This document shows, in pieces, positions 15,549 to 43,197 of a stretch of DNA of 64,000 nucleotides. Origin of the DNA: a virus. Its lineage: Duplodnaviria; Heunggongvirae; Uroviricota; Caudoviricetes. The notes below the pieces were generated by a model, which saw only the letters and a list, made by a program, of their open reading frames with translations, did not search any database and was not told the DNA's origin. The translations under genes and the position numbers were made by a program. The stretch is from positions 27,069 through 91,068 of the IMG/VR virus record IMGVR_UViG_3300027782_003987; one strand, 5' to 3'. Within the stretch, counting starts at the first letter, position 1. Each line of letters starts with the position of its first letter.

Positions 15549-15579
15549 GGGCAAAAGGTAGACTTTTGCCCTTTTTTCG
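15549..15579 (+). terminator. rho-independent terminator after the fibre genes
   Basis: Hairpin GGGCAAAAG-gtaga-CTTTTGCCC followed by TTTTTTCG. Confidence 0.6.
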
Positions 15580-15587
15580 TTTATAAT
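15559..15587 (+). promoter_or_regulatory. sigma70-like promoter TAGACT-N17-TATAAT for the 15.6-34 kb operon
   Basis: Same TAGAC(C/T)-N17-TATAAT architecture as the promoters at 45292 and 48641. Overlaps the terminator; the first ATG of the operon is at 15594. Confidence 0.5.
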
Positions 15588-17456: not shown

Positions 17457-17793
17457 AGAAGAACTTTTAGAATTTTATAAAAACTACAATTGGTCTGATC
17501 CTGCCCCGATTCATTACCGGTTATATCACGACGATGAAGGTACTCCGTTGTTTTACAGTCAGGAAGATTTGCCCGGTAAGTACATTGATATCACGCCCCG
17601 ACAGTTTGCATTGCAGGACATGGAAGCACGAGTAGTTGATGAAAAACTCATCCGCGTCAGGATTTCCTGGTTAAACAAAGTTGTACATGCAGATTCAGGC
17701 ACACTTTGCCACCACAACGATGTAACCATCGTAGTTGATCAACAACCCGGACAGTATTGGAAGAAAAAAGAAAATGTCGTTGAAACAAATTGA
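17449..17793 (+). CDS. hypothetical protein
   Basis: ATG at 17449 overlaps the upstream stop (ATGA). The ORF is listed from 17416. Confidence 0.45.
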   Translation: MNEEELLEFYKNYNWSDPAPIHYRLYHDDEGTPLFYSQEDLPGKYIDITPRQFALQDMEARVVDEKLIRVRISWLNKVVHADSGTLCHHNDVTIVVDQQPGQYWKKKENVVETN

Positions 17794-18706
17794 TATAGCA
17801 GATCTAGACTGCGTTTACCTAAGTTATGATGAACCTGCTAAGGAAGAGTTTTGGGTCAAGATCCGTAACATGGTGCCTTGGGCCACAAGGGTAGATGGTG
17901 TTAAAGGAAGTGATGCAGCACACAAAGCAGCCGCAGCGGCCAGCACTACTGAGCGTTTCATCTTGATAGATGGCGACAATCTTCCTGATCCTGAATTCTT
18001 TAATCAAACACTAAAATTCCCCACCGAAGAACATGAAAAAGCAGTGTTCCGATGGAGAGCTAGAAATCACATCAATGGCTTGATGTATGGCAATGGTGGT
18101 TTAAGTTCTTGGACTAAGACCTATGTGAAAGATATGCACACACATGAGAATACAGATGGGCGCACAGAAACTCAAGTAGAGTTTTGTTTTGATCCATTAT
18201 ATTGGGCTATGCACGACTGTTATAGCACTACACACCCAAATGGATCTGCTTTCCAAGCCTGGCGTGCTGGATTCCGTGAAGGTGTGAAGATGTGCCTGGA
18301 TCGTGGTCGCAGACCCACAGTGAGTGAGTTTCAGACTCTGGTTCATCAACGTAATCTTGATAATCTTACTATTTGGCATAATGTGGGCGCAGATGTGGAT
18401 TACGGATATTGGGCCATTGCAGGTGCAAGGCAGGGCACATACATGACCATGCTCACCAATTGGGATTATTTGCAGGTACAGAACTTTGATGCATTAGCCG
18501 AGCTATGGAAAACTGTAGAGGATGATCAGCCCGAACATATCATTAACAGCATTGCTAATGAATTGCATACTCAGCTGGATCTCCCCATGCACATGCTGAC
18601 AGTAGACGCTAGTAAGTTTTTCAAACATCATTACAAATCAAACTGGCGTAATCGTGATGTTATGGTTCGAGAAATAGACATGGTCCATCAACAAGAAGCA
18701 CGGTAA
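17774..18706 (+). CDS. hypothetical protein
   Basis: ATG at 17774 has an upstream AAAAGAAA RBS-like stretch. The ORF is listed from 17735. Confidence 0.5.
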   Translation: MSLKQIDIADLDCVYLSYDEPAKEEFWVKIRNMVPWATRVDGVKGSDAAHKAAAAASTTERFILIDGDNLPDPEFFNQTLKFPTEEHEKAVFRWRARNHINGLMYGNGGLSSWTKTYVKDMHTHENTDGRTETQVEFCFDPLYWAMHDCYSTTHPNGSAFQAWRAGFREGVKMCLDRGRRPTVSEFQTLVHQRNLDNLTIWHNVGADVDYGYWAIAGARQGTYMTMLTNWDYLQVQNFDALAELWKTVEDDQPEHIINSIANELHTQLDLPMHMLTVDASKFFKHHYKSNWRNRDVMVREIDMVHQQEAR

Positions 18707-19761
18707 TGAACTGGAACTGTGCAGCGATTGATCATGGAATCACTTTTCATGAAAATGGTCAAATAGCACCATGCTGTTTAATCTCGTCTACCTACAGTAA
18801 AAACATCTCAGAAATTGATAACAATCCGTTTGCAGATTTAAAAACATCGACACCTCCACTGGTTTGTAAAGTTTGCGTTGATGCAGAAAATAACAATATA
18901 CCAAGTTATCGCCAAGGATTCAATCAACGAAAAAGCGATCACCCTGGATTTCAGTTTGTCGATATAAGAAATACAAATTTGTGTAACTTTAAATGCAGAA
19001 CTTGTGGACCTCAGAACAGCAATCTCTGGGCCAAGGAACTCGGAGAAACTATTCCTATCAGACATTTTCCATTGTCTAATTACAAACAATATATTGTTAA
19101 TCAAAGTGTGCAGAGCATTTATTATACCGGGGGCGAACCGTTAATCAACAGTGAGCATTGGGATTTGCTAGAAGAATTAACAGTTGCCGGAATGAGTAAA
19201 AATATCACATTAAATTACAATTCCAATATGTCGGTATTAAAATTCAAAGACAAAAATATTTTTGACGTTTGGAAAAATTTTAAATCAGTACAAATTATGG
19301 CCAGCATTGATGCGATCGGAGAAAAGTTTGATCATATACGGTCCGGCGGCAAGTGGGATGTAGCAAATGAAAATATCCGTGCTTTAAAAAACCACAATAT
19401 AACCTTAGCCATTGGGACCACAGTAAGCATTTTGAATTTGTGGTTTTTAGAAGAATTATTGATGTTTTTTAATGATCAGAACATTTCAGTTGAGCTATCT
19501 GATTTGCATTATCCTCCCTACTTTTCATTATCGGCTATACCCGATGAACTTAAAAATTTAGCATTGAGCTGTGTTAATAAAATTGAAAAAATATATCACA
19601 ATAAAAACAAATGTGATTACATGAGATTACAGATAAACAATAATAGTAAGCAACATCTATTCAAAGATGCCGTTATGAAAACTCTATCACTGGATAAAAT
19701 AAGAGGAGAAAAATTATTTGATTTTCTTCCTTTCCGAGATCATGCACTACCGCTAATATGA
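18706..19761 (+). CDS. radical SAM enzyme, subfamily A (N-terminal twitch/SPASM-like Cys domain followed by the rSAM core)
   Basis: CNFKCRTC (CxxxCxxC) and YYTGGEPL (GGE SAM-binding motif). N-terminal APCCLIS...CKVCVDAE cysteine motif. Confidence 0.8.
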   Translation: MNWNCAAIDHGITFHENGQIAPCCLISSTYSKNISEIDNNPFADLKTSTPPLVCKVCVDAENNNIPSYRQGFNQRKSDHPGFQFVDIRNTNLCNFKCRTCGPQNSNLWAKELGETIPIRHFPLSNYKQYIVNQSVQSIYYTGGEPLINSEHWDLLEELTVAGMSKNITLNYNSNMSVLKFKDKNIFDVWKNFKSVQIMASIDAIGEKFDHIRSGGKWDVANENIRALKNHNITLAIGTTVSILNLWFLEELLMFFNDQNISVELSDLHYPPYFSLSAIPDELKNLALSCVNKIEKIYHNKNKCDYMRLQINNNSKQHLFKDAVMKTLSLDKIRGEKLFDFLPFRDHALPLI

Positions 19762-21131
19762 ATAATAAAAGTTTTTTTCAAAACTCGGCTGAGCAAATGA
19801 AAGATCAACTAGGACCTGCACTATGCTTGGCTAAATGGAAACAGGTCAGCTTACATCTTACCACAGGATTAAATAACAGTTGCTACCATCCGCCCTTGCA
19901 TCCGATAGACTCTGCTGCGATTGCTGCTAATCCAGCAGCTCTACATAACACCGAGCATAAAAAAGCACAGCGTAAGATAATGCTACAGCACGAACGTCCT
20001 AGTGAATGTAGTTACTGCTGGAACATGGAAGATCTCGGCAAGCTGAGTGACCGGCATTACAGATCAGGAGAACCATGGGCTGCTGTAGATTTTAAAAAGA
20101 TAAAAAACTCAACTGGAGATGAAGAAGATGTCATACCGTCATATGTGGAAGTCAATTTCAACAATGCCTGCAACCTTAAATGCAGCTATTGCAGCCCGCA
20201 GTTCAGCTCTAGCTGGCAACAAGAAGTTGACCGGCATGGGGCATTTCCTACTTTGGTTCCTCATAACGCTGCTGAGCATTTTAGCGGCAGCCGCAGGCCT
20301 ATCCCTGCCCGTGATCACAACCCTTATGTAGAAGCATTTTGGGCATGGTGGCCCACGCTGTATCCTGAGCTCAAACACTTTCGTATGACCGGCGGCGAAC
20401 CACTGATGGATCGAAACACCTATCGAGTGTTTGACTATGTGTTAGAACACCCCAAGAGCGATCTACATCTAGCAGTCACATCAAACTTCAGCGTAGAGCC
20501 CGAGCTATCAACAAAATACTTTGACTATGTGAAACGCTTATGCGACACTGATATCGAACATTTCATGCAGTATGTTAGCCTTGACTCGGGCACAGGGCCA
20601 CAAGCAGAATACATCCGACATGGATTAGATTTTGACCGCTTAACGCACAATGTGGAAACATATCTCAGAGATATTCCTTATCGTAATAGTCTTACGTTTA
20701 TTGTAACTATGAACAATCTTAGTGTGACAGGGTTCCTGCCATTGATGCAGTGGATATTAGATCTTCGACGCCGACACAGTCACACATATCAGCGTGTGTG
20801 GTTTGATACCCCTGTGTTGAGACAACCTGCATGGCAAAGCCTACAGACCTTGCCTGAGAGCTATGCTGCGAAACTAGAACAAGCAAGAGATTTTATGTTG
20901 GCCAATCTCGAAACTGCAGAAGACCCGTTCCACGGATTCAAGGACTATGAGGTGCAACGACTTGAGCGCGACATTGCCTGGATGCGATCGGTACCAAATG
21001 TAAGCACACGAGACTTGGCAGATTTTTATAGATTCTTCACAGAACACGATCGACGCAGAGGCACAGACTTTGAAAAAACATTCCCAGAGATGATCACCTG
21101 GTGGAAACAGTGTGGTCTGCATGCTAGGTAA
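19758..21131 (+). CDS. radical SAM enzyme, subfamily B (N-terminal AKW...SC-HPP...CSYCW twitch-like domain followed by the rSAM core)
   Basis: CNLKCSYC and RMTGGEPLM motifs. Paralogous to 23398..24729 and 26438..27838. Confidence 0.8.
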   Translation: MNNKSFFQNSAEQMKDQLGPALCLAKWKQVSLHLTTGLNNSCYHPPLHPIDSAAIAANPAALHNTEHKKAQRKIMLQHERPSECSYCWNMEDLGKLSDRHYRSGEPWAAVDFKKIKNSTGDEEDVIPSYVEVNFNNACNLKCSYCSPQFSSSWQQEVDRHGAFPTLVPHNAAEHFSGSRRPIPARDHNPYVEAFWAWWPTLYPELKHFRMTGGEPLMDRNTYRVFDYVLEHPKSDLHLAVTSNFSVEPELSTKYFDYVKRLCDTDIEHFMQYVSLDSGTGPQAEYIRHGLDFDRLTHNVETYLRDIPYRNSLTFIVTMNNLSVTGFLPLMQWILDLRRRHSHTYQRVWFDTPVLRQPAWQSLQTLPESYAAKLEQARDFMLANLETAEDPFHGFKDYEVQRLERDIAWMRSVPNVSTRDLADFYRFFTEHDRRRGTDFEKTFPEMITWWKQCGLHAR

Positions 21132-22278
21132 GTCAAAACTCGTCCTGGACCAGAATTGCCAATTCCACTGCGAAGTGTATGATTTACTACGCCCACTGGC
21201 AGATGATGATTTCTATGAATTACAAGATAAACCGATCTCTACGGGTGCCATTTATGTCGTGGGGTATGCTCAATTTGAAAAGCATAGAGATTGGTTGGTT
21301 GAACTAGTCGAAAGTGACACAGTTAAAATTATCTTGAGTCAGACCTCCGAAGGTTCGTGGACTATGTTAGGAGTATTGAGACGATTGAGAATTGAACATT
21401 TAGTAAAATCCAAGAAAATTTTATTGATAACCACTGGCGACATGGATGATTCTTGGGCAAATCTTCAATTCGACAGTTATATGCTTAGACTATATAATCA
21501 TAAAGAAAACTTAAGAGCATGTGATCGAACCCAGGAAATCTATTCAAAATCTCATAAACCTTACAAATTTCTTTTTTTAAATGGTAGAGGTAGACCACAT
21601 CGTAAGTATCTTATTGAAAGATTTGCTCTGTCAGGAATATTGGATCAATCATTGTGGTCGTCGTTAGACTCAGATACCATTGATAAGCATGGATGGATTG
21701 ATCTGATTCACCAGGGTAAAAATTTAATACTCAATCCAAGACCGATAAAATATCTACCACCCCAATACGAATACGATAGCTATCAAGATAGAATTGATAG
21801 CCCCACCACTGACACATTTGTTAAACATCATCTATTCAATAATACCTGGGGAGATATTTACCTTAAGGCAGAACCTTATATCGATACCTATTTTAGTTTA
21901 GTTACTGAAACAGTATTTTTCTATCCACATTCATTACGGTCTGAAAAAATTTACAAACCCATAGCTATGGGTCATCCGTTCATTGCTGTAGCTAATTGTG
22001 GATTCTATCGAGACTTGCATAAGTTAGGTTTTAAAACATTTGGTCATCTCATCGACGAGAGTTTTGATACTATAGAGGATAATCAATCTCGAATCGAGCG
22101 AATCGCAGAAGTAGTTGAAGACTTATGCCAACAGGATCTGGCAAGTTTCCTTGATTCATGCCATGATATCTGTAAATACAATCAACAACGATATGCAGAA
22201 GCAAGATTAGAAGTACGTGAAGAATTTCCAGATCGCTTTTTAAATTTTCTTAATCAACATTGGCCCAATGCAACATAA
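21121..22278 (+). CDS. unknown-function paralog 'family X' (possible glycosyltransferase-like)
   Basis: Shares the block YFSLVTETVF...SEKIYKPIAMGHPFIAVAN..YRDL.KLGFKTFGH.IDESFD with 22268..23401, 34017..35204 and 35201..36328. Confidence 0.6.
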   Translation: MLGKSKLVLDQNCQFHCEVYDLLRPLADDDFYELQDKPISTGAIYVVGYAQFEKHRDWLVELVESDTVKIILSQTSEGSWTMLGVLRRLRIEHLVKSKKILLITTGDMDDSWANLQFDSYMLRLYNHKENLRACDRTQEIYSKSHKPYKFLFLNGRGRPHRKYLIERFALSGILDQSLWSSLDSDTIDKHGWIDLIHQGKNLILNPRPIKYLPPQYEYDSYQDRIDSPTTDTFVKHHLFNNTWGDIYLKAEPYIDTYFSLVTETVFFYPHSLRSEKIYKPIAMGHPFIAVANCGFYRDLHKLGFKTFGHLIDESFDTIEDNQSRIERIAEVVEDLCQQDLASFLDSCHDICKYNQQRYAEARLEVREEFPDRFLNFLNQHWPNAT

Positions 22279-23401
22279 TTTACAAATAGATACCCGTAGT
22301 GTACTGTATGATATTCTAAAACCCTACGCGGTAGAAGAGTTTTGGGATTTCAGAGACTGCGAGCCAGTTCCTGGCAGTATATATGTGGTCGGCCGGCAAC
22401 AGTTGATAGATAACCTGGACCAGATTCGTAGCATGGCGTTGAGTCAGGATTATACCATGGTGTTTGATTGCGCGGCAGAAGGTTCGTGGACCTTACAACA
22501 ACTAATTCTGTCTCTTAAAATTGACGACTTAATTGTGTCGGGACATCTATTGATGATAGCCGGCGGCGACATGCCTAGCAATTATCCATATATAAGACAT
22601 GATCATTTTATCAATGTGTTCCTGGATTACGAACACAACTTGCAACAAATGACTCGTCTTGATGAATTATACAATCAACCCGATAAACCTTATAAGTTTT
22701 TGTTCCTCAATGGATCTGCCAGAACACACAGGAAATATCTATGGCAACGATTCCGTCAGATGGGGCTATTGGATCAGGCGCTGTGGACCATGTTGGATTC
22801 AAGGCCAGTGAGGTGGGGAAAGATGAAACTAATAGAAAACGGCGTTGATCTCTTTGGTGAGATTACACCTATACAGCACTTGCCCAGCAAATATGAATAC
22901 ATGCAATATCAGGATGTTGAGATAAAAACTGATCCATCGGACCAGAAATTTATCAAACATGATTTATTTGGTAATACCTGGGGAGAAGGTTATTTACAGG
23001 CCGAACCTTATCGTGACACCTATTTTAGTCTTGTTACAGAAACTGTGTTTGGGGAAAGTAATTATAGTTTCCGAACAGAAAAAATAGTCAAACCATTGGC
23101 TATGGGGCATCCTTGGATAGTGGCTGCTAATACCGGCTATTATAGAGATTTACGAAACTTAGGATTCCAAACATTCGGACATGTGATAGATGAAAGTTTT
23201 GATCTAATCGACTCGCCTATGGATCGAGCCGAACGTATTATTTCTATAGTCAACGATTTATGTCAGCAGGATCTTGCAAGTTTCCTTGATTCATGTTACA
23301 ATGTCTGTAAATACAATCAGCAACATCTCCGGGAACTACGCGAACAGATTCGTAAAGAGTTTCCAGACCGTTTTTGGCAATTCCTACAACAACATCAATG
23401 A
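22268..23401 (+). CDS. family X paralog
   Basis: Conserved block YFSLVTETVFGES..FRTEKIVKPLAMGHPWIVAAN.GYYRDLRNLGFQTFGHVIDESFD. Confidence 0.6.
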   Translation: MQHNLQIDTRSVLYDILKPYAVEEFWDFRDCEPVPGSIYVVGRQQLIDNLDQIRSMALSQDYTMVFDCAAEGSWTLQQLILSLKIDDLIVSGHLLMIAGGDMPSNYPYIRHDHFINVFLDYEHNLQQMTRLDELYNQPDKPYKFLFLNGSARTHRKYLWQRFRQMGLLDQALWTMLDSRPVRWGKMKLIENGVDLFGEITPIQHLPSKYEYMQYQDVEIKTDPSDQKFIKHDLFGNTWGEGYLQAEPYRDTYFSLVTETVFGESNYSFRTEKIVKPLAMGHPWIVAANTGYYRDLRNLGFQTFGHVIDESFDLIDSPMDRAERIISIVNDLCQQDLASFLDSCYNVCKYNQQHLRELREQIRKEFPDRFWQFLQQHQ

Positions 23402-24729
23402 CCGATTTAGAATTTAAACAACAGGTGTTGGACACCAAGAGTGCAAGTTTTTGTGCAGCAAAATGGTATAATGCAACCATCTGGTTGGGTAGTGGCATGA
23501 CTACAAGTTGCCATCATCCTCCTGCCCACTTAGTAGATGTATCTATGTTATCCTCTAACCCTAGGCTGCTGCACAATACCGATCAGAAGAAAGAGGATCG
23601 ACGCAAGATGATAGCCGGCGAGCGTCCGTCAGGTTGTGAATATTGCTGGAAAATCGAAGACATGGGCAGTGATGCCATCAGCGATCGTGTGTACAAGAGT
23701 AAAATTTATCCCTTAGAGTTGTTAAATGAAGCACATACCAATCCACCCGATCAGGACTTCAACCTCCGTACCCTGGAGATTGCTTTTGACCGCACTTGTC
23801 AATTTGCTTGCAGTTATTGTAATCCTGCATTCAGCAGCACTTGGGTTCGAGACATTCGTAAAAATGGACCCTATCAGGGCCTTGTGTCTGATGGCAGGAA
23901 TCACTTTACTCATGATCATGGCAGCAGTCAGCTTTATAGCTTCGGTGAAACCAATCCTTATGTGGAGGCGTTCTTTGCGTGGTGGGAGTCGGACCTACAT
24001 CGAACCCTCCAGGAACTGAGAATCACTGGCGGCGAACCACTGATGTCAGGAGAGACTTGGAAACTGATTGATTGGTTCAAGAACAATCCTGGGCGTAGCC
24101 AAACACGCCTGGCAATCAATTCAAATCTAGGCACTGCGGTAGATCTAGATCGATTGATGGCCAGTATTGATGGATTAGAAGTTGACTTATACACTTCCAA
24201 CGAAAGCGTAGGTCTACAGGCTGAATACATCAGAGATGGTCTGGTGTGGGATGACTGGGCTAATAATGTGGAACGCTTGTTGGATAGTAGAAAGTTCCGC
24301 GGCATACACATGATGAACACCATCAATGCATTGTGTCTGTATTCGCTGGATCAGTTCTTGGAATGCATAATGAACTGGAAAATAGAATACGGCCGTGATG
24401 CTGTGAGTTTTACCTTGAACATCCTGAGATTCCCCAGTTTCCAATCACCCTTGGTGTTGCCCAACGAACTACGCACAGTATTTCGACAGCGGTTAGAAGT
24501 CTGGCTTGACGCTTGGTGGAATAGTGAATTCTTGCATGAGCATGAAGTCAACCATGTGCAACGCTTGATTGATTACTTAGACATAGTCAAGACTCCGCAT
24601 TCAGAAGCATTTGACCGGCCCAAGTTGTTGAATGATTTCAAGCAGTTTTACACACAATATGACCAGCGTCGAGGCAAATGCTTTGATCTGGCATTTCCTG
24701 CACTAAAACCCTGGTATGACACACTATGA
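23398..24729 (+). CDS. radical SAM enzyme, subfamily B
   Basis: CQFACSYC and RITGGEPLM motifs. N-terminal AKWYNATIWLGSGMTTSCHHPP...GCEYCW. ATG at 23398 overlaps the upstream stop (ATGA); the ORF is listed from a TTG at 23374. Confidence 0.8.
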   Translation: MTDLEFKQQVLDTKSASFCAAKWYNATIWLGSGMTTSCHHPPAHLVDVSMLSSNPRLLHNTDQKKEDRRKMIAGERPSGCEYCWKIEDMGSDAISDRVYKSKIYPLELLNEAHTNPPDQDFNLRTLEIAFDRTCQFACSYCNPAFSSTWVRDIRKNGPYQGLVSDGRNHFTHDHGSSQLYSFGETNPYVEAFFAWWESDLHRTLQELRITGGEPLMSGETWKLIDWFKNNPGRSQTRLAINSNLGTAVDLDRLMASIDGLEVDLYTSNESVGLQAEYIRDGLVWDDWANNVERLLDSRKFRGIHMMNTINALCLYSLDQFLECIMNWKIEYGRDAVSFTLNILRFPSFQSPLVLPNELRTVFRQRLEVWLDAWWNSEFLHEHEVNHVQRLIDYLDIVKTPHSEAFDRPKLLNDFKQFYTQYDQRRGKCFDLAFPALKPWYDTL

Positions 24730-26441
24730 CACTAGATGAAAAAATAACACAACTAAAAGCTCAGTACGATGTCGTGGCAGTGATCAATCTTGACCCATGG
24801 CACGATCAGACTGAATATGGTAAAAAACCTTGGCTGATGCAAACTATCAGTCTTGTGCATCAAGATCCTTATGCAGATAATCAGAGAATATTGTTCACAG
24901 TCTCACGAGGTGATATCTACGCAGAAAACGATAGTCCAGCAGGGCAGTTATTAACACAACTACAACGAAGACTAAACGAAATTGATATATCTAATTTTTT
25001 TATCATAGTGCTTACTAATGATATCACAATGAGAGATGCATATCTCGGTCACTATCAAGATTTTTCACAAGATCCTGTTCCATTTACTGTGGAGGTCTAT
25101 GCTGACGAGATTACGGAACGACATATACAAGATAAAATGTCTAACAACACAACAGCGGGCAAGTATAATTACACCAATCTAGATCCAATAAAGATTGATG
25201 TCAAAGATCTCAGTGAGCAAGAAAAATTCCTGCTCACAAAAAGTTCTACATTTTGTATGTTTCCGTGGATACATATTCACGCTTATCCTACTGGCTCAGC
25301 GTATCCATGTTGTATGGCGGAGATGGAATTTCCTATTGGTGATATGAGAAAAAACACCATTCGGGAAATATGGAATCAGGAACCCATGAAACAAATACGC
25401 AGGCAGATGCTAAACGAAAGATCTCTCCCGGCTTGTAACAGATGCTATGAACAAGAATCAATTGGAGTTGTTAGTGGAAGAATGAGTGCTAACAAGCATC
25501 ACGGCCATCTAATCAACCGTATACATGAAACTAAAGAAGATGGAACACTAGATAGATTTGAATTGACCTACTGGGATATAAGATTTTCAAATCTCTGTAA
25601 CCTCAGTTGCCGTAGTTGCGGGCATATATTCTCAAGCTCTTGGTATCAGGATCAAGCCAAAATAGCCGGGCCAGAGTGGAAAAAAACACACAAGGTATTA
25701 AACTATGCTGGTAGATTTGAAACGGATGCGTGGGATCAGTTGGTAGATCATATTGAACATGTGGAACAGATCTACTTTGCAGGCGGCGAGCCTTTGCTGA
25801 TGGAAGAGCATTATAAGATTCTTGATGAACTGGTGCGTCGAGAAAAGTTTGATGTAAGATTGATTTACAACACTAATTTTACTCATACCAATCTTAAAGA
25901 TAAGAGCGTATTTGAATATTGGAAATTATTTGATTCAGTCAGCGTAGGTGCTAGCCTTGATGGATCCGGAAGATATGGCGAATATATACGTAAGGGTACT
26001 GAGTGGAAACAAGTTGAACAAAATAGGATTGACATGTTAAAAATTTGCCCAAAAGTAGATTTTTACATCAGCCCTACGCTCAGTATAATGAATGCCTGGC
26101 ATCTTCCGGACTTTCATCGAGACTGGGTAGAACTCGGACTTATCAAGCCCCAAGATATCAACGTGAACATCTTACAAGATCCGCCATACTATCGAATTGA
26201 TATTGCTCCGATAAAATATAAACAACGTCTACGGATAAAATATCAAGAACATCTAGAATGGTTAAAAAATCAAGATCCATTACAGCGGGCCAGCACAGGA
26301 TTCAACTCAGCTATCAATTTTATGATGGCCGCAGACAACACACATCTTATTGATACTTTTTGGCGTAAAACACATGAGCTAGATGCTATACGTTCAGAAA
26401 GCTGGTCAGATGTGTTGCCCGAGCTGAGTGCATTGCAATGA
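24726..26441 (+). CDS. radical SAM enzyme, subfamily A, with an extra 170-aa N-terminal domain
   Basis: N-terminal FCMFPWIHIHAYPTGSAYPCC...IGDMRKNTIREIWNQE...ACNRCYEQE matches the SPASM first-half consensus. Followed by CNLSCRSC and YFAGGEPLLM. Confidence 0.8.
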   Translation: MTLDEKITQLKAQYDVVAVINLDPWHDQTEYGKKPWLMQTISLVHQDPYADNQRILFTVSRGDIYAENDSPAGQLLTQLQRRLNEIDISNFFIIVLTNDITMRDAYLGHYQDFSQDPVPFTVEVYADEITERHIQDKMSNNTTAGKYNYTNLDPIKIDVKDLSEQEKFLLTKSSTFCMFPWIHIHAYPTGSAYPCCMAEMEFPIGDMRKNTIREIWNQEPMKQIRRQMLNERSLPACNRCYEQESIGVVSGRMSANKHHGHLINRIHETKEDGTLDRFELTYWDIRFSNLCNLSCRSCGHIFSSSWYQDQAKIAGPEWKKTHKVLNYAGRFETDAWDQLVDHIEHVEQIYFAGGEPLLMEEHYKILDELVRREKFDVRLIYNTNFTHTNLKDKSVFEYWKLFDSVSVGASLDGSGRYGEYIRKGTEWKQVEQNRIDMLKICPKVDFYISPTLSIMNAWHLPDFHRDWVELGLIKPQDINVNILQDPPYYRIDIAPIKYKQRLRIKYQEHLEWLKNQDPLQRASTGFNSAINFMMAADNTHLIDTFWRKTHELDAIRSESWSDVLPELSALQ

Positions 26442-27838
26442 CAAAAAATCTACATCTATACATAACAGAACAAGATTATAAAGAAATGGCTGGGTCAGAC
26501 TGGCCTTTGTATAGTAATTTTTTGCAAGGAGCTCGTGGAGAGAAACCAGCGGTACAACAAGAGCTAGAAGCATATATCAAAATGCATCGAGCACAAGGAA
26601 TAAAATTTCCTATCAAGACTGCCACGGCTTGTCAAAGCAAATGGACCTGGAGCACGATCTATCTTAATTCACTTAGCACAGCCAGCTGCCACCGTGTTAA
26701 CCCGATACCTTTTGATCTTGAAGATTTTGATAATTTCCATAACATACCCAAGAAACTTAACGATCGACGGCTCATGCTTGAAGGCAAATGGCCCACCGGT
26801 GGATGTGAATACTGTCAAGAAATTGAAAATGCAGGTGGCTGGAGTGATCGACAACATAATCTAGACATAAGAGGACTTACTCCTCCGGAACTGGAGTCGG
26901 ACCCCACTGCTGTGTCAGTTACTCCTCGACTGGTTGAGATATTTGCTCAGAACACCTGTAATCTAAGTTGCGTTTATTGCAATGGATCTTTGAGCAGCAA
27001 AATCGAACAAGAAAATATCAAGCATGGAGAGTTTACCCAAGGTAATGTAACAATACCGATTGTAACAATTCCCACAGCAGCAACCAAAGAATACTTTGAT
27101 CGATTTCTTGCTTGGCTAGAAAAAAACATTCAAGAACTGCCTCGATTGCATCTATTAGGAGGAGAAACATTTATACAGCACGAGTTGATGAATTCGGTGT
27201 TAGACATAATAGAACGCAAGCCCAATCCAAATTTAGAACTCTGTATTTTTAGTAATTGTAATGTGCCCGACAAATGGTGGGATTATTACATTGGCCGAAT
27301 CCATGCACTACAAATCGCAGGAAACATGAAAGTATTTGATCTAACAGCCAGCATTGATTGTTGGGGGCCTGAACAGGAGTATGTAAGATCTGGACTCAAT
27401 TTAAACAAGTTTGAAAAACGATTCGCATGGGCAAGTCAACAAGGGGATTGGTTACGACTCAATGCCAATCAGACCGTTACTGCAATGACTATAAAAACAA
27501 TGCCCGGGCTGATTGAAAAAATAAAACAATATAGTAAAAACAAACACATTGGGCATTATTTTCAATTTTACACCGGGGTGCATATGTTTCACCATCCAAA
27601 GATATTCGCTTGGGATTTTTGGAAAGATGATTTTGAAAAAATATTAAATACCATGCCCACCGACACAGGCGCACAAAGAGAAGCGATTCCTCGTATGCAA
27701 GGATTGCAGAGTTTGTTAAAGCAAAGTTCAGAGAATGATCTGGTTTCTATAAAGCAGTTGCATGTGTACCTCGACGAACTTGATCGACGTCGATCGACTA
27801 ATTGGCGGTCTTTGTTTTCCTATCTTGACGTATCATGA
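26438..27838 (+). CDS. radical SAM enzyme, subfamily B
   Basis: CQSKWTW...SCHRVNPIPF...GCEYCQE N-terminal domain, then CNLSCVYC and HLLGGETFI. Confidence 0.8.
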   Translation: MTKNLHLYITEQDYKEMAGSDWPLYSNFLQGARGEKPAVQQELEAYIKMHRAQGIKFPIKTATACQSKWTWSTIYLNSLSTASCHRVNPIPFDLEDFDNFHNIPKKLNDRRLMLEGKWPTGGCEYCQEIENAGGWSDRQHNLDIRGLTPPELESDPTAVSVTPRLVEIFAQNTCNLSCVYCNGSLSSKIEQENIKHGEFTQGNVTIPIVTIPTAATKEYFDRFLAWLEKNIQELPRLHLLGGETFIQHELMNSVLDIIERKPNPNLELCIFSNCNVPDKWWDYYIGRIHALQIAGNMKVFDLTASIDCWGPEQEYVRSGLNLNKFEKRFAWASQQGDWLRLNANQTVTAMTIKTMPGLIEKIKQYSKNKHIGHYFQFYTGVHMFHHPKIFAWDFWKDDFEKILNTMPTDTGAQREAIPRMQGLQSLLKQSSENDLVSIKQLHVYLDELDRRRSTNWRSLFSYLDVS

Positions 27839-29040
27839 AAATACCCCACGAACAATTCTGCGTATTACCCTGGATTAGTTTGGAAGCCAGTCCTATTGGT
27901 ACTGTGAGACCTTGTTGTCTGGCCGATGACGAGGTTCATGATGATGCCGGAAATAAATTTGAATTAGCCACAGCTGATTTTTCTACTATACAAAATAGTC
28001 GTCACATGCAAGAACTACGCACAGGATTCTTGTCAGGACAACGGCCAGAAACATGTAGAAAATGTTGGAACGAAGAAGATGCAGGCCGTACAAGTAAACG
28101 TATGCATACATTAGATCGTCTCAAACACTCACTGAAGGATGATGATTGGAGCTCGGATGCTAAATCATTGATGTTCTTAGATCTCAAACTGGGCAACATT
28201 TGCAATCTCAAATGTAGGATATGCGGGTCATGGTCGAGCTCACAGTTTGCTGGAGAAGAGATTTCTTTCATGCCACGAGCAGAACAAAAATCCAGCCATG
28301 CTTACAAAATGTTACGAGCTGGCGCCTGGCCCAAAGAGAACACACAGTTCTGGCAGCAGATTGATAGCGTGCTTGATGATATACGCTACATTGAATTCAC
28401 CGGTGGCGAACCATTTATGATTGATCAACACTTTGACATGTTGCAACACATAGTGGATCGTGGTATTGCTGGGCAAGTTGAAATACACTATAACACCAAT
28501 GGCACATTGTTTCCTGATCGTGGACCGGATATATGGCGACACTTTAAAACTGTGGAAATTGCGTTCAGTGTGGATGATATTGGTCCACGATTTGAATATC
28601 AACGCTCAAATGCCTCTTGGGGCACCGTGAAAGAGAACATCAACCGGTTCAGGATCATGCGTGAAGGTATGCCTAACTTACAGTTGCAATGCTGCACCAC
28701 GGTGAATGTGTTTAATGTGAGATATCTTGATCAAGTAGCACTATGGATAGCATTGCAAGATTTTGATTTTGTGTATTGGAACATGATGCATGATGCTTGG
28801 TATTTTTCGATATCAAGACTGCCCGCCGACGCTAAACAACACATTGCTGATTATCTAGCAACCTGTGATACACCTGACCAGTTCCGAGAGGAGTTTGGAC
28901 GTATCATTGATTTTATGATGCGGGGTGAATCATCTGACGGCGAAGAAACAAGACAACAGATTCGTCGACTGGATCAACGTAGGCACGAAGATCTAACAAA
29001 AATAGCGCCAGAGTTAGCAAGTATATTAAATTATAACTAA
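27835..29040 (+). CDS. radical SAM enzyme, subfamily A
   Basis: FCVLPWISLEASPIGTVRPCC...TCRKCWNEE N-terminal domain, then CNLKCRICGS and EFTGGEPFM. Confidence 0.8.
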   Translation: MKIPHEQFCVLPWISLEASPIGTVRPCCLADDEVHDDAGNKFELATADFSTIQNSRHMQELRTGFLSGQRPETCRKCWNEEDAGRTSKRMHTLDRLKHSLKDDDWSSDAKSLMFLDLKLGNICNLKCRICGSWSSSQFAGEEISFMPRAEQKSSHAYKMLRAGAWPKENTQFWQQIDSVLDDIRYIEFTGGEPFMIDQHFDMLQHIVDRGIAGQVEIHYNTNGTLFPDRGPDIWRHFKTVEIAFSVDDIGPRFEYQRSNASWGTVKENINRFRIMREGMPNLQLQCCTTVNVFNVRYLDQVALWIALQDFDFVYWNMMHDAWYFSISRLPADAKQHIADYLATCDTPDQFREEFGRIIDFMMRGESSDGEETRQQIRRLDQRRHEDLTKIAPELASILNYN

Positions 29041-29041
29041 T

Positions 29042-30157
29042 ATGGGATTTTTTTGTGCCTTTCCTTTTGAAAAATTGCAGATCTTCAGCGACGGAAGTAC
29101 AAATCCTTGTTGCATGTGGACCGGTGACAAAACCGAAACATTAGGCACATATTTTCAAAGCCACCAGATTGCACAGGTTCAGAAACAATTATTACAAGAC
29201 CAAGTGCCTAGGCAATGTATCAAATGCTATGACAGCGAACAACGGTCTGGGCAGAGTCTTAGGACCATGAACCAGGCTTTTGAAAATGTTGAATCGGTTA
29301 TCCGAGATCGAGCAACTACTTTACCTAGCTTTGATATCAAAGAAATATCTATTGCAACTAGCAATATTTGCAATCTCAAGTGTTTGCCTTGTGAGAATGC
29401 AAGTTATCTAAGAAACGTAGAATTACACAAATTAAAAATAAAAAAAGATGTTCCTATACTAGCAATTTATAAAAATGAATACAATCTCAAAGACTTTAAA
29501 TCATTGGAACAAATAACTTTTCTCGGCGGCGAACCGTTTGCAGACAAAATCACATTTGAACTAATAGATCAGCTGATTGAATCAGGACAAAGTCGAAACA
29601 TTAGATTAGATCTAAATACAAATCTGACGCTGTGTAACAGAGAAAATCTTTTAAAGATTCGTGACAATTTTCAAGACGTGCTCATCAAAGGTAGCATTGA
29701 TGGCACAGGAGAATTCCATGAATATTTACGTTACCCTAGCAAATGGACAGAGATTGAACAAGCCGTTGACCTAATCCAAGAACTTGAAATTCCAATGATA
29801 CTGACCACGGCATTGAGTAATTTAGCATTGCTACGATATGTTGATCTTGTGCATTGGGCTATGCATCGGGGAATAAATGAGTTATTCTTGAGCATGGTAG
29901 ACACGCCAAAAGTTCTAACATTCGACCATTTGCCATTGGCTATTAAATCTCAGTTGCTAGAACAATTTAAAATTTTACGCACACAATATCCGTTTACCGG
30001 ACGCACTGAATATGCTATTGATACGTGTATAAAAATTTGCTCCAATACTGATATAGAGCATGACATGTCGGATCTAAGTAGTTGGTTGAGCAAGCATGAT
30101 GATCTCAGGGGAACAGATTTTAGAAAACTATGGCCGGAGTTAAATGACCACATCTAA
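29042..30157 (+). CDS. radical SAM enzyme, subfamily A
   Basis: FCAFPFEKLQIFSDGSTNPCC...QCIKCYDSE N-terminal domain, then CNLKCLPC and TFLGGEPFAD. Confidence 0.8.
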   Translation: MGFFCAFPFEKLQIFSDGSTNPCCMWTGDKTETLGTYFQSHQIAQVQKQLLQDQVPRQCIKCYDSEQRSGQSLRTMNQAFENVESVIRDRATTLPSFDIKEISIATSNICNLKCLPCENASYLRNVELHKLKIKKDVPILAIYKNEYNLKDFKSLEQITFLGGEPFADKITFELIDQLIESGQSRNIRLDLNTNLTLCNRENLLKIRDNFQDVLIKGSIDGTGEFHEYLRYPSKWTEIEQAVDLIQELEIPMILTTALSNLALLRYVDLVHWAMHRGINELFLSMVDTPKVLTFDHLPLAIKSQLLEQFKILRTQYPFTGRTEYAIDTCIKICSNTDIEHDMSDLSSWLSKHDDLRGTDFRKLWPELNDHI

Positions 30158-31442
30158 ATCACTGTGTTTAGCACCTTGGGTTCACACCTATCTCTCTCCG
30201 CAGACCGAAAGACGTATGTGCTGTGCGTCAAGAGAGCCGGCACAGAATTTCCAACAATACATTGATACTGAATCAGGAACAGGTACTTTCATTCCCATCA
30301 CATTGGAAGAACACTGGAATGGTGATCACATGAGATCGGTCCGACGCCGTATGATGGCCGGAGAACTCTTGCCTGAGTGTGAAGTGTGCAATGATCAGCT
30401 GTTGAATACAGATGTATATCGCACATATTTTGGACAGCTCTTTCAACATAAATACTTTGAAATTTTAGAACAAACGGATGCCGACGGTTACACCACAATG
30501 CAACCAGTGAGTTGGGATTATAGATTCAGCAACCTGTGCAATTTCAAGTGCAGGACATGTGGTGACATGTTAAGCAGTAGTTGGGAATCGGAAGAAAAGA
30601 CACATCATATGGTCAATTGGTCCGATTCCAAAAACAATTGGATGCGACCCAAGGTACGAGAACAGATAAGCCAGTTCCAAGACAATCAAATTGAACAAGA
30701 GTTCAGTGATGCTGTAGAACAACATAGGGTAGAGGAAGTGTATTGGGTAGGCGGTGAACCGTTGATGTATGAGCAGCATTGGCGATACATGCAACGTATA
30801 ATAGAACTAGGAGATGGGCCAAGAGTATATGCTAGATATAATACAAATTTATCCAGGGTGGAGTATCGTGGCATCAATCTCTATCGCGACATTCTTCCTG
30901 GGATTAGGGATTGGCAGATATGTGCAAGTCTCGACGGCACAGGCTCAATTGGAGAATACATTAGAACAGGCCTTGATTATGATCAATGGCTTGAACACTT
31001 CCGTGGAGCAGTTGCAATCAAATCTCACTCACGTCAAGTCAGAATTGACTTTACGCTCACTCTGCCCGGAATGTTCGAAGTTGGCTCAATTACAGAACTC
31101 GCTAGACAATTCGGCGTAGATATTTTAGCCAAAGTTATCTTCTCATTCACTCCAGAGATCATCATGAGTCCATTGGCCTTGCCCAGGCATTTGCTTGAGC
31201 CTTGGCTGGACGAATTGATTCCGGAAACAACAGGGGCCATGAAAGATGTGTTGATACAGTTAAAGAATCGCCCTACATTTGAAGAACAATGGCCAGATAC
31301 TTATAAACAAGGTCTTGCTCAAGGCCGTGCTCGTATGTTACAATTAGAACAGATACGAACTAACCCGATAACTATGACCGATATCCTATCAGCAAGACCT
31401 GATGTACTAAAATGGTGGATGGAAATTGACGAATTTAATTGA
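30144..31442 (+). CDS. radical SAM enzyme, subfamily A
   Basis: LCLAPWVHTYLSPQTERRMCC...ECEVCNDQ N-terminal domain, then CNFKCRTCGD and YWVGGEPLMY. Confidence 0.8.
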   Translation: MTTSKSLCLAPWVHTYLSPQTERRMCCASREPAQNFQQYIDTESGTGTFIPITLEEHWNGDHMRSVRRRMMAGELLPECEVCNDQLLNTDVYRTYFGQLFQHKYFEILEQTDADGYTTMQPVSWDYRFSNLCNFKCRTCGDMLSSSWESEEKTHHMVNWSDSKNNWMRPKVREQISQFQDNQIEQEFSDAVEQHRVEEVYWVGGEPLMYEQHWRYMQRIIELGDGPRVYARYNTNLSRVEYRGINLYRDILPGIRDWQICASLDGTGSIGEYIRTGLDYDQWLEHFRGAVAIKSHSRQVRIDFTLTLPGMFEVGSITELARQFGVDILAKVIFSFTPEIIMSPLALPRHLLEPWLDELIPETTGAMKDVLIQLKNRPTFEEQWPDTYKQGLAQGRARMLQLEQIRTNPITMTDILSARPDVLKWWMEIDEFN

Positions 31443-32463: not shown

Positions 32464-32561
32464 ATTGGATTAAAAGAATGTGGGCCAAGATCACACTAGA
32501 AATTCGCTATCGTAAAAAATTGCGAGAACTTCGTAAACGAGATCCGTTCATCTACAAATGA
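32460..32561 (+). CDS. small basic hypothetical peptide (33 aa, MNWIKRMWAKITLEIRYRKKLRELRKRDPFIYK)
   Basis: ATGA overlaps with both flanking genes, filling the gap between 32463 and 32558. Under 60 aa, so absent from the ORF track. Confidence 0.3.
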   Translation: MNWIKRMWAKITLEIRYRKKLRELRKRDPFIYK

Positions 32562-43196: not shown

Positions 43197-43197
43197 A

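Follow-up and report, generated by a model that had tools for sequence, protein, structure and literature searches.

Eight N-terminal-twitch radical SAM paralogs in a jumbo phage module that may tailor a virion glycoconjugate

What would a phage do with eight radical SAM (rSAM) genes in a row? Within a 64,000-nucleotide stretch of DNA from an uncultured freshwater jumbo phage (the window, by which we mean the whole stretch analysed), eight rSAM ORFs lie on the + strand within 18706-31442, each with one CxxxCxxC and one GGE motif (Table 1). A preliminary description of this locus regarded so many consecutive copies as exceptional and proposed that they serially modify a shared glycan or a large protein.

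One radical SAM subfamily with two paralog groups

The preliminary description had staked the rSAM identity of the eight ORFs on HMM thresholds. All eight passed the 170-bit cutoff of the curated NCBIfam model NF033640 (N_Twi_rSAM, "N-terminal twitch-domain radical SAM") with 191-405 bits (E 4e-56 to 5e-121), and the matches, which span nearly the whole model in every case, cannot be attributed to chance. The generic Pfam model PF04055 reached its gathering score in only four of the eight, and 19758, 23374, 26438 and 30144 stayed below its threshold of 29.5 bits (21-25 bits); half of the array thus fell short of PF04055, but none of it of NF033640, and with the motifs present in 8/8 the genes are genuine rSAM genes. 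BLASTP returned the same two paralog sets as before, group A (18706, 24726, 27835, 29042 and 30144) and group B (19758, 23374 and 26438), with low identities among paralogs (20-32%). The longest ORF of 23374 opens at TTG 23374; its ATG at 23398, where the JGI gene call (443 aa) also starts, produces an ATGA overlap.

In the eight-way alignment the twitch cysteines C9, C28, C74 and C77 were invariant, as were C123/C127/C130, G190-G191-E192, N222, S245 and R257; in 18706, for example, CNFKCRTC lies at residue 93 and GGE at 142. All eight belong to one defined subfamily, NF033640, in which the auxiliary-cluster twitch domain is N-terminal. BtrN/DesII-type enzymes and C-terminal-SPASM peptide maturases were the two options raised earlier, and the paralogs are neither. 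The catalytic motifs are intact in essentially all orthologs: with our own N_Twi profile, derived from the window's eight paralogs, CxxxCxxC and GGE were both kept in all but one matching ORF of ≥300 aa in 80 related loci, which indicates that every copy is maintained as an active-looking enzyme.

The largest paralog, 24726, carries an extra N-terminal domain of ~170 aa and a Pfam SPASM match at 177-241. The AF2 model of its residues 170-571 (pLDDT 91.3) matched, in its core only, anSME, CteB, SkfB and BlsE as the nearest solved structures; anSME is a SPASM dehydrogenase that modifies proteins or peptides, and BlsE is a twitch rSAM with a sugar substrate.

A compact array with glycosyl-transfer partners

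Directly upstream come the fibre genes 13099 and 14528, in the window and in its relatives alike, and a terminator-like hairpin directly 3' of fibre gene 14528-15532 separates them from the glyco/rSAM operon. A promoter-like site (15559-15587) overlaps this hairpin. A scan of the + strand for terminator-like sites that have >6 stem pairs and 4 G-C pairs found none within 15896-31442. The eleven array junctions measure -1, -4, -20, -11, -28, -4, -4, -4, +1, -14 and -17 nt, and alternative starts change -20 to -11 (ATG 21121) and -28 to -4 (ATGA, ATG 23398). Of the single co-translated array described earlier, the tight co-directional packing holds, while the overlaps do no more than suggest translational coupling. 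As also described, the array has no intergenic room for a precursor-peptide ORF.

Table 1 Features of the glyco/rSAM region (window coordinates)
Position	Strand	Feature	Details
15549..15581	+	Terminator-like hairpin and T-run	9-pair stem, 5 G-C pairs, then TTTTTT
15896..16699	+	Putative GT-A-type transferase	Motif LLLDADYVV only; paralog of 16683
16683..17456	+	Paralog of 15896	22% identity; phrog_1903
17416..17793	+	Small conserved ORF	Probable start ATG 17449; in 61 related loci
17735..18706	+	17735-family protein	Probable start ATG 17774; invariant D-G-D, Y-G-N-G-G (alignment)
18706..19761	+	rSAM group A, accessory	NF033640 228.9 bits
19758..21131	+	rSAM group B, core	NF033640 317.6 bits
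21112..22278	+	Family X, GT-B-fold glycosyltransferase	Probable start ATG 21121
22268..23401	+	Family X paralog, GT-B-fold glycosyltransferase	
23398..24729	+	rSAM group B, core	NF033640 288 bits
24726..26441	+	rSAM group A, core	NF033640 404.7 bits on residues 173-569
26438..27838	+	rSAM group B, accessory	NF033640 191 bits
27835..29040	+	rSAM group A, core	NF033640 337.6 bits; SPASM at 9-78
29042..30157	+	rSAM group A, accessory	NF033640 236.7 bits
30144..31442	+	rSAM group A, core	NF033640 283.6 bits
31426..32463	+	Conserved core gene between last rSAM and carbamoyltransferase	In 72 related loci
32558..34033	+	NodU/CmcH-type carbamoyltransferase	Pfam PF02543 E 9e-38; PF16861 E 1e-49
34017..35204	-	Family-X-related, C-terminal (donor-binding) GT-B domain	
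35201..36328	-	Family-X-related, C-terminal GT-B domain	
36327..37955	+	Protein with 17735-family domain	Residues ~315-508; BLASTP E 7e-14
37947..38819	-	GFO/IDH/MocA-family oxidoreductase (sugar-nucleotide tailoring)	Pfam
38816..39931	-	DegT/DnrJ/EryC1-family sugar aminotransferase	Pfam PF01041 E 9e-103
39898..40992	-	NAD-dependent sugar-nucleotide epimerase/dehydratase	Pfam PF01370 E 2e-44

Upstream of the array, the label GT8-like previously given to 15896 and 16683 was not borne out by any HMM or structural match; its support is a DxD-type motif. For 15896, Pfam, NCBIfam and PDB searches gave no match, and hhalign against GT2 gave a probability of 3.6%, the aligned stretch being the DxD region; the gene is kept in 40 IMG/VR loci and as RsoM2USA_353 (E 3e-31) of a cultured Ralstonia phage, in which RsoM2USA_352 is the ortholog of 16683 (E 1e-24). 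The only match of 17416 was a weak one to DUF5969. The 17735 protein had no match in HMM or PDB searches and aligned with GT2 at 7% (hhalign), again in the DxD region. A GT-A identity of 15896, 16683 and 17735 is putative. The 17735 family is the hallmark partner 5' of a group-B rSAM, and its adjacency to N_Twi rSAMs is kept in IMG/VR loci, in RsoM2USA_350/_349/_348 (E 2e-68) and in a 30%-GC contig, L166 (E 1.6e-53).

Family X, earlier noted as two paralogs, has four members in the window and consists of glycosyltransferases of the GT-B type. The pair within the array shares 49% identity (BLASTP); 34017 shares 37-40% with 21112 and 22268 across ~91 aa and enters the family X alignment, and copies of the 35201 type occupy variable array slots in related phages. 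The NodU-type carbamoyltransferase recognised earlier was confirmed by both Pfam models, and its homologues adjoin N_Twi rSAMs on an Azospirillum plasmid (E 3e-71) and in four MAG loci. The intervening core gene 31426 had no match in Pfam, NCBIfam, PHROG or PDB-profile searches. Membrane components are absent: among proteins 12435 to 40992 there was no TM-like segment except one borderline hydrophobic stretch in 22268, and no look-alike of Wzx, Wzy or an initiating phosphoglycosyl transferase.

Conservation in phages and bacteria

The neighbourhood comparison proposed in the preliminary description recovered the whole array, conserved with modular variation, in at least 58 IMG/VR jumbo-phage contigs. 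Five rSAMs per array are the norm (48/58 loci; range 4-8) and X genes number 0-4, while three constant slots are empty or hold an additional X or rSAM gene. The claim that eight rSAMs in a row are exceptional was overstated, since the window stands at the high end of the range of a conserved module whose usual number is five. Accessory copies are scarce: 18706 has seven orthologs among related loci, few of which have this copy, 26438 has twelve, and 29042 has only one in 80 loci, its slot being filled by a family-X glycosyltransferase in many relatives (slot comparison). The core copy 27835 has >7500 close homologues in metagenomes.

RsoM2USA carries a one-rSAM version of the module (RsoM2USA_349 is the ortholog of 19758, E 1.9e-94), and this mini-module, ORF348-353, abuts the structural block, where a virion protein is encoded by ORF356 and the tail sheath by ORF359 (PMC8504454). 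Published work has already noted, in passing, similar groups of several rSAM genes in the structural or host-recognition regions of phages: the structural/tail-fibre cluster of Aeromonas phage 332-Vera includes eight (PMC12390700), and rSAM cassettes differ between the host-recognition clusters of pelagimyophages (PMC7029224). Contig L166, which is unrelated, holds six N_Twi rSAMs, four Pfam-verified GT2 genes and the 17735 homologue, and its protein P0330 is an rSAM-GT2 fusion; the rSAM-GT linkage thus recurs, gene fusion included.

The linkage also extends to the triple-rSAM fusion P0244, which lies next to GT1, GT2, DegT, PMT_2 and a pair of TPP enzymes. On the Azospirillum plasmid, three annotated radical-SAM genes, of which one matched the N_Twi profile well (76 bits), another scored a weak 18 bits and the third gave no match, lie amid sugar-pathway genes (nucleotide-sugar dehydrogenase, epimerases, FkbM methyltransferases, carbamoyltransferase and GT). 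The bacterial homologues are less uniform. Among 125 neighbour proteins of 21 single-copy bacterial loci were PhyH (6), ketoacyl synthase (4), GT2 (4) and carbamoyltransferase (2); the 93 proteins of multi-copy bacterial loci included only three GT2, fewer than the eight other rSAMs, five PhyH and four GDSL hydrolases. TPR-repeat fusions occurred in 4/10 fusion proteins examined, and a subtilase-fragment fusion was also found. These mixed neighbourhoods indicate that the N_Twi family as a whole is not tied to glycans, and because of them the array is not a new enzyme class.

A proposed soluble glycosylation pathway and its alternatives

Serial modification of a shared substrate, which may be a glycan or a large protein such as a fibre, remains the best frame. 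The reading we favour, with about an even chance of being right, is a late-expressed soluble phage pathway that decorates a glycoconjugate, with one radical step per rSAM and a fibre as the probable acceptor. The heterogeneous bacterial neighbourhoods count against a glycan, and the TPR and subtilase fusions would equally fit protein substrates. It is rather unlikely, all the same, that the rSAMs act directly on residues of a large structural protein (the 4080-aa fibre, or the 13099 and 14528 fibres) by RiPP-type chemistry on a virion protein, such as C-alpha epimerisation, side-chain cross-links or formylglycine-like oxidation, with the GTs either working separately or sharing that protein as a substrate. 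Structurally, the best matches are anSME, CteB and SkfB, which like SuiB are SPASM/twitch enzymes that modify proteins or peptides; the array adjoins fibre genes in several phage lineages (also PMC12390700; PMC7029224), and the lack of membrane components and the TPR and subtilase fusions fit as well. Pfam, however, found no RRE domain, a leader or precursor peptide is absent, and two features link these enzymes to glycosyl transfer rather than to a peptide: the fusion of an rSAM with GT2, and slots that are filled interchangeably by an rSAM or a GT. Cysteines number 0 in the 13099 fibre, 2 in 14528 and 7 in the 4080 residues of the largest, and this near-absence argues against thioether chemistry.

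Aminoglycoside pathways combine GT-B enzymes, DegT aminotransferases, oxidoreductases and TobZ-type carbamoyltransferases with twitch rSAMs (BtrN, AprD4, NeoN). The enzyme classes of the window are those of aminoglycoside and O-antigen tailoring, the Azospirillum homologue sits in a polysaccharide-type cluster, and the bacterial neighbours number among them PhyH, methyltransferases and GDSL hydrolases, all typical of tailoring. A soluble aminoglycoside-like molecule or pseudo-oligosaccharide, or host LPS or capsule remodelled during infection, is nevertheless improbable as the product: the window families detected include no 2-deoxy-scyllo-inosose synthase, exporter, lipid-carrier glycosyltransferase, flippase or polymerase, the cluster lacks membrane proteins, and its late-structural-gene position and orientation, with conservation in a lytic jumbo-phage lineage, suit a virion component better. 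Hypermodified phage DNA seems very improbable. A modified base would then carry a glycan assembled by GT-B enzymes related to T4 alpha-/beta-glucosyltransferase, and tailoring of that glycan by the rSAMs and the carbamoyltransferase would protect against host nucleases. The window ORFs scanned gave no match to a hydroxymethylase, TET/5mYOX, DNA methyltransferase or nucleotide kinase, up to nine transferase-like genes and eight rSAMs far exceed the needs of any described DNA glycan, the module is linked to fibre rather than replication genes, and the cited paper on DNA glycans has no mention of radical SAM.

Under the favoured glycoconjugate pathway, the region 15896-40992 would be expressed as its own unit directly downstream of the tail-fibre genes. 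The dehydratase/epimerase, aminotransferase and oxidoreductase would supply deoxy or amino sugar donors, the four family X enzymes, and probably also the DxD proteins 15896, 16683, 17735 and 36327, would transfer the sugars, and the NodU-type enzyme would O-carbamoylate a hydroxyl group. Each of the eight rSAM paralogs could then perform one radical step on the phage-made glycoconjugate: its CxxxCxxC [4Fe-4S] cluster would cleave SAM, and the resulting 5'-deoxyadenosyl radical would take the hydrogen of one particular C-H bond in a sugar residue of the glycoconjugate as it grows, while an auxiliary [4Fe-4S] cluster on the four conserved N-terminal cysteines may accept electrons or bind substrate. 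That the rSAM substrate is a carbohydrate we infer from this context; the reaction type is pure inference and might be keto-sugar oxidation, epimerisation, deoxygenation or a C-C/C-O cross-link. A virion protein is the probable acceptor, most plausibly the fibres encoded just upstream, and the decoration is most likely a chemically unusual sugar. Extra rSAMs and GTs exchanged at the same insertion points suggest that this surface decoration would be modular and fast-diversifying.

Identity of the eight radical SAM ORFs

The plus-strand array (18706-31442) had been described from its sequence as eight consecutive radical SAM (rSAM) genes in two paralog groups. This description was confirmed, as each of the eight ORFs (named here by start coordinate) carries one CxxxCxxC and one GGE motif, and BLASTP recovered both group A (18706, 24726, 27835, 29042 and 30144) and group B (19758, 23374 and 26438). 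The second group B ORF can start at a TTG (23374) or an ATG (23398), and the latter, proposed in the preliminary description, matches the JGI gene call. Near-full-length matches to the N_Twi_rSAM model NF033640 were obtained for all eight ORFs, each above the curated cutoff of 170 bits (whole-protein score), whereas the gathering score of the generic rSAM model PF04055 (29.5 bits) was reached by only four (30.7-42.7 bits) and the other four scored 21.1-25.4 bits. The rSAM assignment therefore held in full for the subfamily model and in half of the ORFs for the generic one, and the subfamily match compensates for the sub-threshold PF04055 scores.

In an eight-way alignment, seven cysteines (four N-terminal, three of the cluster motif) are invariant, as are GGE and a few further residues. 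The N-terminal cysteines (C9, C28, C74 and C77, 27835 numbering) precede CxxxCxxC and form a twitch cysteine cluster N-terminal to the rSAM core; Pfam SPASM matches also lie N-terminal of PF04055 in 24726, 27835 and 30144. Across 80 related loci, every N_Twi-profile ORF of 300 aa or more, with a single exception, retained both CxxxCxxC and GGE. We are highly confident that the eight ORFs encode active rSAM enzymes. They are old paralogs rather than recent duplicates, since their identities by BLASTP are only 20-32%. Gene junctions in the array range from -28 to +1 nt, with ATGA overlaps at four or five of them, and from these overlaps translational coupling may reasonably be inferred. Every junction is an overlap or a 1-nt gap, so that no small ORF fits between the array genes, as had been noted. 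The 571-aa product of 24726 has an additional N-terminal domain (residues 1-170, 24726-25232), which matched only the C-terminal region of PgaB, below significance (E 0.005); a similar extension of ~140 aa is common in family representatives of ~530-545 aa.

The AF2 model of the 24726 core (pLDDT 91.3) superposed on the cores of anSME, BlsE, viperin and MoaA, and CteB, SkfB and GDGT-MAS matched as well, but these Foldseek matches covered only ~250 core residues, with TM scores of 0.35-0.42 and ~20% identity. A PDB sequence search by phmmer with two of the rSAMs returned nothing usable (E above 0.5). No close relative of the array enzymes has a solved structure, and none of the structural matches has its auxiliary domain at the N-terminal position.

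Comparison with described rSAM classes gave partial likenesses. The SPASM/twitch dehydrogenases and sugar-tailoring enzymes (anSME, BtrN, BlsE, AprD4, NeoN and DesII) combine, like the array enzymes, an rSAM core with an auxiliary [4Fe-4S] domain, and anSME and BlsE were among the best Foldseek matches; however, the auxiliary domain of that class is C-terminal. Membership among BtrN, BlsE and DesII was ruled out because there was no equivalog-level match (BlsE equivalog TIGR04466, 17 bits against a cutoff of 400) and the fold match was limited to the core. RiPP maturases (CteB, SkfB, SuiB, AlbA and PoyD/EpeE) also have a similar core fold and an auxiliary cluster, and several modifications on one substrate are typical of them. 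In contrast to these maturases, the array comes without a precursor peptide or a C-terminal 7-Cys SPASM domain, and no RRE-type Pfam match was found in its ORFs. As RiPP equivalog models scored at most 40 bits against cutoffs of 340-855, membership of the RiPP families was rejected on all these grounds. Orthology to viperin, QueE or MoaA was likewise rejected, all scores being far under the cutoffs. With the definition of NF033640 itself, the array shares the N-terminal 4-Cys twitch domain followed by the CxxxCxxC rSAM core; that definition is silent on arrays, glycosyltransferase partners and phages, whereas here five to eight paralogs stand in one operon.

Features in the window and their model scores
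Feature	Coordinates or start	Strand	Remarks
4080-aa fibre-like ORF	37-12279	+	Thr/Ser/Gly/Asn-rich, 7 Cys
Terminator-like hairpin	15549-15581	+	After fibre genes
Group A rSAM	18706	+	NF033640 228.9 bits
Group B rSAM	19758	+	NF033640 317.6 bits
Group B rSAM	23374/23398	+	NF033640 288.0 bits
Group A rSAM	24726	+	NF033640 404.7 bits
Group B rSAM	26438	+	NF033640 191.0 bits
Group A rSAM	27835	+	NF033640 337.6 bits
Group A rSAM	29042	+	NF033640 236.7 bits
Group A rSAM	30144	+	NF033640 283.6 bits
NodU/CmcH carbamoyltransferase	32558-34033	+	Carbam_trans_N 131.1 bits (gathering cutoff 24), Carbam_trans_C 168.8 bits (gathering cutoff 27)
ORF with family-X C-terminal domain	34017-35204	-	
ORF with family-X C-terminal domain	35201-36328	-	
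ThyX	41484-42152	-	Downstream of sugar genes
VWA/DUF2201 metallopeptidase-like protein	43500-44822	-	Downstream of sugar genes
MoxR-type AAA ATPase	46196-47281	-	phrog_1297
Non-N_Twi rSAM	51952-52584	-	PHROG rSAM match
Permuted two-piece tmRNA, betaproteobacterial type	54108-54548	-	RF01850 105 bits (gathering score 84); tag AKPLNANASNDEIFALAA
13-14 tRNA genes	55488-60004	-	Among minus-strand rSAM genes
Non-N_Twi rSAM	55981-57024	-	PHROG rSAM match
Non-N_Twi rSAM	60655-61488	-	PHROG rSAM match
Non-N_Twi rSAM	62967-63959	-	PHROG rSAM match

Partner genes and phage context

Two genes interleaved with the rSAMs (21112 and 22268, 49% identical) and the related minus-strand genes 34017 and 35201 make up family X. 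These proteins adopt a GT-B fold, built from two Rossmann-like domains of which the C-terminal one binds the donor, and resemble known GT-B enzymes in structure. For family X, no curated sequence family was found in Pfam, NCBIfam or PHROG even at E up to 5. The carbamoyltransferase placed downstream of the array in the preliminary description was verified by both of its Pfam domains (see the table); the genes past it encode a GFO/IDH/MocA oxidoreductase, a DegT aminotransferase and an NAD-dependent epimerase/dehydratase. The DegT, GT-B and carbamoyltransferase neighbours resemble enzymes of aminoglycoside and nucleoside-sugar pathways.

The remaining partners were harder to place. ORF 17735, just upstream of the array, and a domain of 36327 belong to one family with invariant DGD and YGNGG motifs; the paralogous ORFs 15896 and 16683 share a DAD motif. 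No significant family was assigned by Pfam, NCBIfam or PHROG to 15896, 16683, 17416, 17735, 31426 (between the last rSAM and the carbamoyltransferase), 34017, 35201, 36327 or the X genes, and PDB profile searches with the 17735, 15896 and 31426 families gave nothing usable. Against a GT2 alignment, hhalign returned probabilities of 7% for the 17735 profile and 3.6% for the 15896 profile, with the DxD regions aligned. The label 'GT8-like', given to two upstream genes in the preliminary description, remains a guess at the motif level, and a GT-A fold received no significant HMM, PDB-profile or hhalign support for these families.

The window comes from a tailed jumbo phage, with virion proteins identified by PHROG, and related IMG/VR contigs reach 350 kb. 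Near-identity DNA searches of INPHARED with the array and with 41484-51326 gave no match, so the phage has no sequenced close relative in that collection. The 4080-aa ORF upstream presumably encodes a fibre or baseplate-associated structural protein, a candidate acceptor of modification; its frame is open to the window edge, and the gene may begin upstream. Three more structural or fibre genes follow it (12435, 13099 and 14528), and after the hairpin the co-directional, mostly overlapping genes run without interruption from 15896 to 34033 on the plus strand. The VWA/DUF2201, MoxR and ThyX genes, all downstream of the sugar genes, are accessory genes of a kind typical of large phages, and nothing evident connects them with the array. 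The best NCBIfam matches of the four minus-strand rSAMs were viperin/MoaA/AhbD/HxsC-like and all far under cutoffs; at least 12 rSAM genes thus lie within 64 kb. Among these minus-strand genes, 57024-57782 gave a weak glycosyltransferase PHROG match. A betaproteobacterial host is hinted at by the tmRNA type and by the relationship of the module to Ralstonia phage RsoM2USA.

Homologues of the array are widespread: metagenomes contain more than 7,500 close homologues of 27835 alone. A viral-contig scan found 109 related places, of which 80 were compared; 58 of these 80 cover the whole array. Five N_Twi rSAMs were present in 48 of the 58 loci (range four to eight), and the number of family-X genes ranged from zero to four. 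Genes of the core follow the order 15896, 16683, 17416, 17735, [slot], 19758, X, 23374, 24726, [slot], 27835, [slot], 30144, 31426 and carbamoyltransferase, and each of the three slots may be empty or hold an extra X-type glycosyltransferase or an extra rSAM. The window has eight rSAMs because all three slots hold one (18706, 26438 and 29042), and a second X gene is also present. The full phage module (fibre genes, 15896/16683/17735, rSAM/X array, 31426 and carbamoyltransferase) was also seen, at up to 68% identity, on two contigs of Haliscomenobacter sp. MAG EUL_031 (L087 and L088; 183 and 148 kb) and one of a Legionellales MAG (L089). All three are most likely of phage origin and ended up in bacterial bins. 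The Haliscomenobacter MAG was accordingly rejected as host evidence, mis-binning being likelier and the beta-type tmRNA pointing to Betaproteobacteria.

The N_Twi family in cultured phages and bacteria

Cultured phages carry smaller versions of the module. In Ralstonia jumbo phage RsoM2USA, a mini-module of 15896-like (_353), 16683-like (_352) and 17735-like (_350) genes, a group-B rSAM (_349) and a second 17735-like gene (_348) abuts the structural block, in which ORF356 is a virion protein and ORF359 the tail sheath (PMC8504454). The rSAM is orthologous to 19758 (E 1.9e-94). The mini-module (ORF348-353) is orthologous to that of the window but has one rSAM against eight, and all of its genes are annotated as hypothetical; the family-X profile found no match in a 19-kb stretch of RsoM2USA. 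In Vibrio phage K566, four N_Twi rSAMs form a cluster. KVP40-like Vibrio phages carry one distant N_Twi-like rSAM (~23% identity; e.g. NC_005083 135058-135750), which is conserved in more than 30 such schizo-T4-like Vibrio phages; in the D48x/K5xx group such a gene adjoins a nicotinamide phosphoribosyltransferase gene.

Clusters of this kind have been reported from other phages. Aeromonas phage 332-Vera (PQ474292) has eight rSAM genes, which were termed "highly unusual" (PMC12390700), and the host-recognition clusters (HRC) of pelagimyophages differ by rSAM cassettes (PMC7029224). Both resemble the present loci in having many rSAM genes beside tail-fibre genes and cassette-like variation, but the likeness of 332-Vera is drawn from its published description, and neither report assigned a family, partners or a function (PMC12390700, PMC7029224).

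In the wider family, a profile of the eight paralogs matched 26,263 cluster representatives (50% identity clusters) at E <= 1e-3 and 7,403 at E <= 1e-30, and many of the best matches were two- or three-fold tandem fusions. Literature searches on NF033640, on the N-terminal twitch and on rSAM enzymes in connection with tail fibres, PTM or virion glycosylation gave no functional study, and no paper was found that assigns a function to this large family (7,403 clusters at the stricter threshold). Several loci link its members to glycosyltransferases. One protein (P0330) is an N_Twi rSAM fused to a Pfam GT2 domain, and its contig (L166, 30% GC) holds six N_Twi rSAMs, two other rSAMs, four GT2 genes and one 17735 homologue. 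A triple fusion (P0244) adjoins GT1, GT2, DegT, a TPP-enzyme pair and a PMT_2 transferase. On an Azospirillum brasilense plasmid, three annotated rSAM genes lie among nucleotide-sugar enzymes, FkbM methyltransferases and a glycosyltransferase, with a homologous carbamoyltransferase (E 3e-71); of these rSAMs, one gave a good match to the N_Twi profile (76 bits), another a weak match and the third none.

The neighbourhoods of bacterial homologues were mixed. Among 125 immediately neighbouring proteins at 21 single-copy loci, the most frequent Pfam families were PhyH (6), ketoacyl synthase (4), GT2 (4) and TPR, and among 93 proteins at 24 multi-copy loci they were other rSAMs (8), PhyH (5), GDSL hydrolases (4), methyltransferases (3) and GT2 (3); one 994-kb contig had an uninformative neighbourhood. 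Since the neighbours at these loci are heterogeneous and glycosyltransferases were not strongly enriched among them, the idea that the entire family is dedicated to glycans was dropped. The most recurrent non-rSAM neighbours were the PhyH-type Fe(II)/2-oxoglutarate dioxygenases (6/125 and 5/93), which points to a conserved pairing of rSAM and dioxygenase, chiefly in Bacteroidota and Bdellovibrionota. In addition, at least 10 contigs of an 'Elusimicrobia' MAG (MJ-2014_bin-0981; L099, L100, L103, L110-L113, L115, L121 and L096) bear N_Twi rSAM genes, six of them consecutive on L099 and four each on L100 and L112. Either the source organism has dozens of copies, or a mobile element or phage was binned wrongly into this MAG.

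Proposed function of the array and its alternatives

Eight intact twitch-type rSAMs, four GT-B enzymes, a carbamoyltransferase and three sugar-nucleotide tailoring enzymes form one soluble unit beside fibre genes. rSAM and glycosyltransferase cassettes are gained and lost in a modular way, and rSAM-glycosyltransferase linkage recurs, including as a gene fusion. We consider it somewhat probable that the array rSAMs work in a glycosylation pathway. They would act on sugar residues of a glycoconjugate made by the glycosyltransferases of the cluster, each rSAM abstracting a defined C-H hydrogen via the 5'-deoxyadenosyl radical. In the dehydrogenases anSME and BtrN, auxiliary clusters take up electrons or anchor the substrate, and the N-terminal cluster could do either here. 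The resulting features of the glycan could be keto or epimerised residues, or C-C or C-O cross-links. The acceptor may be a virion protein, probably a fibre, although we put forward a fibre or other virion protein only tentatively. For the reading as a whole, rSAM tailoring of a glycosyltransferase-built glycoconjugate on what is probably a virion fibre, we see the chances as evenly balanced.

A hydropathy scan of 12435-40992 found no membrane protein, the sole match being one borderline hydrophobic stretch in the soluble-looking GT-B paralog 22268, so the pathway does not itself include an initiating lipid-carrier transferase, a flippase or a polymerase. Synthesis of an exported O-antigen or capsule was rejected for the same want of membrane proteins.

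Alternatively, the rSAMs could modify residues of the fibre protein directly. Of ten fusion proteins checked in the N_Twi family, four bear TPR repeats and one a subtilase fragment (Peptidase_S8; P0245, P0257, P0286, P0383 and P0329 together), and such fusions fit protein substrates better than a glycan-only reading. The absence of a precursor and of an RRE, on which the reading as a RiPP cluster was rejected, speaks against this alternative, and we regard it as unlikely. The soluble gene set with its sugar enzymes might also yield a soluble saccharide metabolite or remodel the host surface, which appears quite improbable in a unit lying beside fibre genes, and glycan hypermodification of DNA is given very little weight.

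The putative virion glycosylation of this phage clade, the reading preferred here, would have parallels in the virus-encoded glycosylation of mycobacteriophage capsids and tail tubes and of chlorovirus capsids. We know of no rSAM enzyme in the described mycobacteriophage and chlorovirus systems. To our knowledge, rSAM enzymes acting on assembled glycans or glycoproteins are very rare, and we know of no viral use of them for particle decoration. The enzymes themselves are recognisable and multi-rSAM phage clusters had been glimpsed before; the central functional claim is what we infer. New here are the family identification, the GT-B and 17735-family partners, the slot structure in a widespread lake-phage clade, the rSAM-GT2 fusion and the tractable cultured models. 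The question is directly testable because cultured RsoM2USA (one rSAM) and K566 (four) exist.

A glycosyltransferase-interleaved array of five to eight members of an unassigned rSAM subfamily would be notable to rSAM specialists, and the clade, abundant in lake metagenomes, offers a natural 'combinatorial library' of rSAM/glycosyltransferase cassettes. It is conceivable, though doubtful, that N_Twi rSAMs are a large carbohydrate-tailoring class that works with glycosyltransferases, sometimes fused to them, on a tail-fibre glycan, and that in jumbo phages the swapping of rSAMs and glycosyltransferases acts as a hypervariable determinant of host range or anti-defence. If the substrate were protein or DNA, this would still be a new modification system. 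A product located on tail fibres would have consequences for host recognition, for resistance to host proteases or defence systems and for immunogenicity in phage therapy.
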